A DNA stretch of 64,000 nt, from contig CBDDTI010000746.1 of NCBI GenBank assembly GCA_965233585.1, positions 160,001-224,000 on the forward strand, read 5' to 3'. Positions within the stretch are counted from its first letter, which is position 1; the number at the start of each line of letters is the position of its first letter. Under the pieces are notes generated by a model. The model ran no database searches. It was not told the origin of the DNA and was given only the letters and a program-made list of their open reading frames with translations. The DNA is from a bacterium (GTDB taxonomy: Bacteria > SAR324 > NAC60-12). A program made the translations under genes and the position numbers. This document shows, in pieces, positions 23,571-23,736 of this stretch.

Positions 23571-23736
23571 TGGCTTGTTTTTTTTTTTTGTACGTGCATA
23601 ATGCCCGTTTTGGCTTTTCGCAAAACTCTCATCTTGAAAACAAATGAGGTTTTCATTTCAAGAGGGGAGTTTTTCGTGTGACAGCACCCGCAGGGGGTGC
23701 TGTTGTTTTGTTTCATCTCTCATTGGAGTTAATCAA
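23571..23736 (+). promoter_or_regulatory. Promoter with T12 tract and structured 5' leader (copy A)
   Basis: TTGTTT-16 nt-CATAAT with T12 at 23578-23589; hairpin at 23622-23673; terminator-like hairpin at 23680-23704 plus GTTTTGTTT; RBS GGAG at 23725. Confidence 0.65.

Follow-up and report, generated by a model that had tools for sequence, protein, structure and literature searches.

The window analyzed here, a 64-kb stretch of DNA (64,000 nucleotides) from a diderm bacterium of ~40% G+C, carries ankyrin, TPR, OmpA/MotB, and lipoprotein genes. An atlas entry for a neighboring outer-membrane protein offers a weak taxonomic hint: Myxococcota is the most frequent label, but very few members are labeled. 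Two of the lipoprotein genes, encoding P0001 and P0002 on opposite strands, share a front end: pairwise blastn aligns a single homologous block (A 23571-23858 with B 14484-14196; 73% of 293 columns identical, E 1e-39), the next best pairwise match having an E of 0.099. The features of the two copies are as follows.

23571 to 23858, forward strand: module copy A (the blastn block), with promoter-like block, leader, RBS, and signal-peptide coding region.
23572 to 23602, forward strand: promoter-like block A, reading GGCTTG, T12 (23578-23589), GTACGTG, and CATAAT; putative promoter.
23603 to 23736, forward strand: leader copy A, ~130 nt.
23622 to 23673, forward strand: hairpin 1 of copy A, with a 9-bp outer stem, a 1x1 loop, an 8-bp inner stem, and a 16-nt loop.
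23680 to 23713, forward strand: hairpin 2 of copy A, intrinsic-terminator-like, with a 10-bp stem (23680-23689 / 23695-23704), the loop GCAGG, and then GUUUUGUUU.
23725 to 23728, forward strand: RBS of copy A, GGAG, followed by ATG at 23737-23739.
23737 to 27351, forward strand: gene for P0001, a 1204-aa lipoprotein with a signal peptide to Cys45, two FN3 domains, and Kelch repeats.
14196 to 14484, reverse strand: module copy B (the blastn block), paralogue of copy A.
14453 to 14483, reverse strand: promoter-like block B, reading GGCTTGTA, T10 (14475-14466), GTACTTG, and CATAGT; putative promoter.
14318 to 14450, reverse strand: leader copy B, ~130 nt.
14385 to 14433, reverse strand: hairpin 1 of copy B, with a 7-bp outer stem, a 4x3 internal loop, and a 7-bp inner stem.
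14343 to 14377, reverse strand: hairpin 2 of copy B, with an 11-bp stem (14377-14367 / 14360-14350), the loop UUGUGU, and then UUUUUAU.
14329 to 14326, reverse strand: RBS of copy B, GGAG, followed by ATG at 14317-14315.
13214 to 14317, reverse strand: gene for P0002, a 367-aa lipoprotein with the same type of signal peptide and SBBP repeats.

The module is 288 bp long and runs from the promoter-like block through the leader and RBS to a 45-residue lipoprotein signal peptide; its onset is sharp, at the conserved promoter-like element, and its end coincides with the lipobox cysteine. A preliminary description of this DNA had drawn attention to the architecture common to the two leaders (hairpin 1, hairpin 2 with a U tract, GGAG, and ATG), and all of its sequence statements are correct. 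Because both leaders are parts of one paralogous block, however, this architecture was inherited from one ancestral module and does not represent two independent occurrences. Identity between the copies varies along the module: 30/37 positions in the promoter-like block, 10/19 in the 5' leader segment, 39/54 in hairpin 1, 14/28 in hairpin 2, 12/19 from the U tract to the RBS, and 14/16 in the RBS-start region. The GGAG lies ~20 nt 3' of the hairpin 2 stem in both copies.

The signal peptides of P0001 and P0002 are 70% identical in a 46-residue alignment (103 of 135 bases of coding DNA), and past the lipobox cysteine the two sequences are unrelated (16/30 bases identical). The signal peptide is unusually long (23737-23871; 14317-14183), with ~28 conserved residues (consensus MFA..T.K.F.KALVA.TDA.ASFLKPS) ahead of an n-region, h-region, and lipobox of the normal kind; the signal peptides of other lipoproteins in the window (47571, 54078, and 54785) are short and ordinary.

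The promoter-like block contains a conserved element consisting of GGCTTG, then T12 (or TA + T10), then GTACNTGCATA. A 29-nt pattern of this block has two matches in the window, against 0.00 expected, and both are the known copies. The hexamers as we read them are TTGTTT (A) or TTGTAT (B) and, with a spacing of 16 nt, CATAAT (A) or CATAGT (B). Conservation and position suggest that this is the promoter; a sigma-70 consensus scan does not call it, the -35 match being only 3/6. The flanks of the T tract (TGGCTT ... TTGCA or GTGCA) resemble sigma-54 -24/-12 elements at a spacing 12 nt too long, and a sigma-54 reading was rejected by eye on the GG-to-GC distance of 24 rather than 12. A Bacteroidetes-type -7 motif, likewise sought by eye, occurs in copy B only and was also rejected.

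Among the 13 homopolymer runs listed in the 64-kb window, T12 and T10 rank first and second in length; they lie between the presumed -35-like and -10-like hexamers with the same spacing in both copies. They form a candidate site for slipped-strand phase variation in the promoter spacer. The Mycoplasma vlp lipoprotein family has shared 5' modules and a poly-A homopolymer in the promoter. As in vlp-type families, the promoter, leader, and signal peptide here make up one conserved block before unrelated mature lipoproteins; unlike in those families, there are two genes only, and both tracts have the same spacing. We know of no leader terminator among variable lipoprotein families with a promoter homopolymer. 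Homopolymer tracts in promoters are also reported for Neisseria nspA (PMC6389960) and Treponema tprL (PMC7864442). A long homopolymer (T12, T10) between the presumed -35 and -10 hexamers is the arrangement of promoter-spacer phase variation, known for several surface-protein genes.

Hairpin 1 had been described as outer AACTC/GAGTT arms around TTGAAA-N16-TTTCAA. The core is found at 23634-23661 and 14395-14422 with no other match in the window, and the outer arms surround it in both copies; the bare core pattern is not rare by chance, with at least two matches in 12 of 100 shuffles. Predicted folding of hairpin 1 is strong in copy A (z -3.9; 2/200 shuffles as good) and not better than that of shuffles in copy B (z -1.2; 26/200). 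The arm segments AACTCT, CTTGAAAA, TTTCAA, and GAGTT, 25 nt in all, are identical between the copies, and the internal-loop segments differ (CAT + GAGGG in A; TTTCC + ACCAA in B). As a near-neutral yardstick we took the adjoining signal-peptide region, where codons for the same residue agree at only 23/32 third positions; at that rate 25 identical arm bases would have a probability of ~3e-4 (0.72 to the power 25), a rough figure given the small yardstick. Since the arms are identical where synonymous sites are so at 23/32, they are constrained in sequence and not merely in pairing. Among the 13 homologous pairs of hairpin 1, 11 are unchanged, one has a one-sided change (U-G to U-A), and one a double change (C-G to U-A), both changes falling in the outer stem; four further pairs exist only in A and one only in B. 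The non-palindromic loop is partly conserved (CA.ATGA.GTTTT).

Hairpin 2, described earlier as a hairpin and U tract ~20 nt before the GGAG, has this form in both copies and begins at GAC in each. A terminator scan calls both (23678-23706, forward strand, 12 pairs with 6 GC; 14377-14350, reverse strand, 11 pairs with 3 GC), and their predicted folding energies are matched by none of 200 shuffles in either case (A, -19 kcal/mol, z -3.7; B, -12.8 kcal/mol, z -4.2). Hairpin 2 thus has the predicted structure of an intrinsic (Rho-independent) terminator and would be expected to terminate transcription. Hairpins with U tracts are apparently used as terminators after genes here, e.g., at 23114-23132 after a HAD gene. 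In copy B the upstream gene, a Mrp-like ATPase (14653-15711, forward strand), is divergent, so hairpin 2 cannot serve to end the transcript of a different gene. The gene upstream of copy A is co-directional, ends at a distance of 700 bp, and is equipped with terminator-like hairpins of its own. With a gap of only ~20 nt, there is no room for a promoter between hairpin 2 and the RBS, and transcripts of both lipoprotein genes must therefore pass hairpin 2. The earlier claim of a terminator between promoter and RBS is supported in this form: a terminator-like hairpin lies inside the transcription unit, 3' of the only conserved promoter-like block (a putative promoter) and 5' of the RBS.

The stems of hairpin 2 differ in sequence and keep their pairing, as had been noted: all 10 homologous pairs are intact despite changes at 7 of 20 stem bases. 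Six pairs are unchanged, one has a one-sided change (A-U to G-U), three have double changes (G-C to A-U once, C-G to U-A twice), and none is broken; the loop sequences are unrelated. In simulations, seven substitutions keep all 10 pairs with a probability of 0.0007 if any substitution is allowed and 0.07-0.08 if only transitions are. The statistical weight of the hairpin 2 covariation is modest because all observed changes are transitions. From these comparisons of the two copies, hairpin 1 is constrained in sequence, and hairpin 2 constrained in structure but free in sequence.

Over the whole leader there are 23 homologous pairs, with four double changes, two one-sided compatible changes, and none broken; three of the four double changes are in hairpin 2, and all four are transition pairs. 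Pairs were counted by coordinates because hairpin 1 did not stay in register when the leaders were aligned with MAFFT. The leader had been called conserved and covarying: the pairing is indeed kept with compensatory changes, but the basis for this is two paralogous copies only, and we regard the covariation as real but thin, the copies being related by descent. The G-U pairs (one in hairpin 1 of A, one in hairpin 2 of A, and two in hairpin 2 of B) fit folding of the sense-strand RNA, because the other strand would have C-A mismatches at these positions.

The predicted fold of both leaders consists of these two hairpins; most pair probabilities exceed 0.9, and those of the terminator pairs are 0.8-1.0. 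The whole copy B leader folds with a z of -1.7 (12/200 shuffles as good). Hairpin 1 ends at 23673 in A and 14385 in B, and the terminator starts at 23680 and 14377, leaving a gap of 3-7 nt without overlap. Neither pair probabilities nor forced opening of the terminator revealed a competing antiterminator fold in either leader; disrupting the terminator by keeping its 3' arm unpaired takes 14.2 kcal/mol in A and 11.7 kcal/mol in B, and the two copies have no replacement pairings in common.

The leader matches no described RNA family in Rfam 15, which has no match at gathering thresholds in the whole window. E-value scans of the two leaders gave 14 and 3 sub-threshold matches, the best at 24.1 bits against a threshold of 56, all of them noise of the generic-hairpin kind; the preliminary description had likewise not recognized a known riboswitch. 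Run over the whole window with filters off, a covariance model derived solely from copy A scored copy A at 127.7 bits, the reverse strand of copy A hairpin 1 at 29.4, and copy B at 25.9 (E 4e-4). The next match in the window is noise (13.9 bits, E 0.29), and the best in a control set of 112,570 bases of unrelated loci reached 16.8 bits. No third copy was found in the window with this model or with exact and near-exact patterns of the promoter block and RBS-start region.

Searches outside the window were directed at the signal peptides and the neighborhood. The two signal peptides recovered no related loci from a genome contig collection, and a search of genome contigs for SmpB synteny found only seven distant loci, from Clostridia and Isosphaeraceae MAGs, with identities of 44-51%. 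Plasmid and phage collections had no match, and a word-indexed protein search with the 46-residue N terminus returned only the query protein itself. Searched exhaustively with a profile of the two signal peptides, 1.84 billion representatives yielded four proteins at E <=0.001: P0001 itself, P0006, P0007, and one weak match. P0006 is 75% identical to P0002 (273/366), and P0007, which has an insertion in its signal peptide, shares 84% identity with P0001 across 643 residues. Public metagenome protein sets thus contain orthologues, and therefore a related organism exists in such data. The signal-peptide extension of P0007 contains a partial internal duplication.

P0001 and P0002 also have in common an internal Cys-rich domain of ~78 residues (P0001, residues ~570-645, ~25445-25670 in the window; P0002, residues ~60-137, 14140-13907), with a 23-residue identical stretch, SPFSFGDDAIAKDKLCVRVKASG. 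It is covered by no Pfam family. The domain is present in P0006 and P0007 as well, the latter having one truncated and one complete copy.

On the comparison of these two paralogous copies, the leader is probably factor-dependent and represents a candidate new motif of a familiar kind, a hairpin with a leader terminator. Our tentative reading, to which we give somewhat less than an even chance, is that the leader's intrinsic terminator is read through when a trans-acting factor recognizes hairpin 1. Transcription would start at the conserved promoter-like block with its T10-T12 tract. The ~130-nt leader would form hairpin 1 first and, 3-7 nt later, the stable hairpin 2 with its U tract, which by its predicted structure would act as an intrinsic terminator. 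Most transcripts would then stop at hairpin 2 as a ~100-nt RNA, and lipoprotein mRNA would be made only if a trans-acting factor, recognizing hairpin 1 by sequence, permitted RNA polymerase to read through. Because the same hairpin 1 precedes both, the P0001 and P0002 genes would form a small co-regulated set. Such a layout resembles processive or protein-dependent antitermination (LoaP with its hairpin and terminator; lambda N with boxB), not a two-state riboswitch. A more specific version, which we consider unlikely, makes hairpin 1 the RNA recruitment site of an undescribed dedicated antiterminator (a NusG paralogue or N-like RNA-binding protein) in an uncultivated diderm lineage; this factor would override the leader terminator and thereby activate a small regulon composed of large surface lipoproteins, with a second, stochastic layer from the T10-T12 tract. 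No antiterminator gene (NusG/KOW, ANTAR, or CAT/RBD) was found among the 43 ORFs scanned in the 64-kb window.

Several known systems resemble parts of this layout. In the lambda N/boxB nut and HK022 put systems, a sequence-specific RNA hairpin 5' of terminators makes RNA polymerase read through; the boxB hairpin spans 15 nt and has a GNRA-like loop, whereas put consists of two stem-loops. The present leaders differ in their chromosomal rather than phage context and in lacking boxA: none of 103 loose matches to a boxA-like motif falls in the leaders. ANTAR antiterminators bind a leader hairpin to prevent termination, and NusG paralogues of the UpxY type control surface-structure operons. The BglG/LicT-RAT system, like ANTAR proteins, uses a protein that binds a leader hairpin and so prevents termination (PMC5393181). 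The bound RAT or ANTAR hairpin shares sequence with the terminator's 5' arm. The present leaders differ from this type: hairpin 1 ends 3-7 nt before the terminator, with no overlap or alternative pairing. RfaH/ops and related NusG paralogues provide dedicated antitermination of cell-surface genes via a 5' leader element (PMC7593976, PMC2871177). The ops signal is a single-stranded non-template DNA element and not a hairpin, in contrast to the hairpin carried by the leaders here; of 24 ops-like matches at <=2 mismatches, none lies in 23603-23736 or 14318-14450.

The closest parallel is LoaP, a NusG paralogue. In Bacillus velezensis, the dfn and mln operons have leaders with a nearly identical hairpin, each followed by its own intrinsic terminator, and LoaP cannot bring about antitermination without that hairpin (PMC12691694). 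In the same way, we find two units with a near-identical leader hairpin and their own intrinsic-terminator-like hairpin 3' of it in each leader. The LoaP hairpin, as described there, is small, with a UNCG tetraloop, in a 417-nt leader, whereas hairpin 1 is a ~50-nt interrupted helix with a 16-nt loop, without a UNCG tetraloop, in a ~130-nt leader. The LoaP targets named in that account are long biosynthetic operons; those here are single lipoprotein genes in a different, diderm lineage. A NusG paralogue usually adjoins the LoaP target, and among the 43 ORFs of the 64-kb window none is of the NusG/KOW type. We do not claim membership of the LoaP family for this leader.

The conserved arms of hairpin 1 would fit a DNA operator equally well, the alternative that the preliminary description had raised. 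The nested palindrome AACTCT..TTGAAA-N16-TTTCAA..AGAGTT, centered ~40 bp 3' of the presumed start, would bind a dimeric or tetrameric regulator and block or modulate transcription, and hairpin 2 would be a leaky terminator or a stabilizer outside the switch. Both arms are sequence-conserved rather than covarying, with their 25 identical bases; the four half-sites are ~10-11 and 22 bp apart center to center, which places them on one face of the helix; and the 29.4 bits scored by the reverse strand of copy A hairpin 1 with the forward-strand model make the element nearly symmetric. The copy A palindrome is imperfect, however, at 23629/23666, a U-G pair in the sense RNA but a mismatch in symmetric DNA, and one outer pair is changed on both sides, as pairing would explain and a fixed half-site would not; these two positions favor RNA weakly. 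The non-palindromic loop is also partly conserved, and no regulator gene adjoins either copy. We consider an operator unlikely, though a serious contender. A similarly low weight falls on a constitutive structured 5' UTR, in which the hairpins protect the 5' end of the mRNA or fix a low level of read-through and nothing is conditional. Stable 5' hairpins are established mRNA stabilizers, both hairpins are predicted to be very stable and without an alternative fold, and no regulator was found in the window; yet with a strong hairpin and U tract 20 nt 5' of the RBS, most transcripts would be wasted, and a purely structural role does not need arm sequences conserved above synonymous sites. That promoter, hairpin 1, and terminator form the gene for a ~100-nt small RNA acting in trans, with the lipoproteins made by read-through, would agree with the usual anatomy of bacterial sRNAs (promoter-like block, structured body, and U-tailed terminator), but no duplication of the unit is seen apart from the RBS and signal peptide, it has no free-standing copy in the window, and it matches no sRNA family in Rfam; we regard this reading as improbable.

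In translation-coupled attenuation, a short ORF would begin at the ATG in the hairpin 1 loop, and a ribosome at the foot of the terminator would prevent termination. The loop ATG is conserved (23644 in A; 14411 and 14408 in B), an 11-codon ORF in copy B ends, by eye, with TGA at 14378-14376, at the terminator foot, and many genes in the window have no obvious Shine-Dalgarno sequence. Against this, the ATG is kept but neither frame nor stop is: in copy A it lies 35 nt from the conserved TGAC, which puts that TGA out of frame, and it reads without a stop into the main ORF. No RBS precedes either loop ATG, any peptide similarity is confounded by the conserved stem, and with no conserved short ORF this mechanism is very unlikely. 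The preliminary description had also left room for a ligand. A ligand-binding riboswitch with an expression platform would account for a terminator in the 5' leader and, as no known family is matched, could be a new class. Mutually exclusive structures are the defining trait of such riboregulators, as set out in PMC5314783, and neither leader has them; the cost of opening the terminator and the absence of a shared replacement helix tell against the ligand option and against a classical attenuator. Hairpin 1 is, moreover, a simple helix with interruptions; it has neither a multi-helix junction nor a conserved pocket, and its middle differs between the copies, so that a riboswitch is the least credible of these mechanisms, with scarcely any probability left to it.

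If the preferred reading, read-through dependent on a factor that recognizes hairpin 1, is right, the leader would be a compact, sequence-defined control unit of hairpin and terminator for surface lipoproteins in a lineage without a cultured close relative. Factor-dependent leader antitermination would then extend beyond the Firmicutes, enterobacterial, and Bacteroides examples, and hairpin 1 would offer a simple handle for fishing out the factor. If it is wrong, the locus is still a clear case of a promoter-leader-signal-peptide module reused before unrelated lipoproteins.

Near the start codon, both copies have CUCU 4 nt 5' of the GGAG (23716-23728; 14338-14326), able to form a 4-bp mini-hairpin with the Shine-Dalgarno sequence (pair probability 0.5-0.6), and UUUGG at the leader 5' end can pair with UCAAA just 5' of the AUG. 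These pairings are conserved in sequence, weak in energy, and without covariation support.

REP-like palindromic repeat clusters flank the P0001 gene on both sides (23150-23360 and 27440-27900). One repeat, GTCATTGCGGGACCTGACCCGCAATCTC, occurs exactly twice (23232-23259 and 23327-23354) along with degenerate relatives, and visual inspection shows several copies of a second type, GAGATTCCGCATCAAGTGCGGAATGAC; the ORFs predicted in the clusters (23172-23453 and 27461-27760) are probably spurious. Adjoining the repeats is a 117-aa ORF (28076-28429, forward strand), Cys-rich in an N-terminal segment and carrying an HTH_23 domain, which looks like an insertion-sequence accessory protein. Elsewhere in the window are two tandem pairs of paralogues with near-identical N termini, PEBP-family lipoproteins (54078-54764 / 54785-55516) and Peripla_BP_2 binding proteins (57621-58760 / 58810-59949). 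Duplication of gene front ends seems to be common in this genome.
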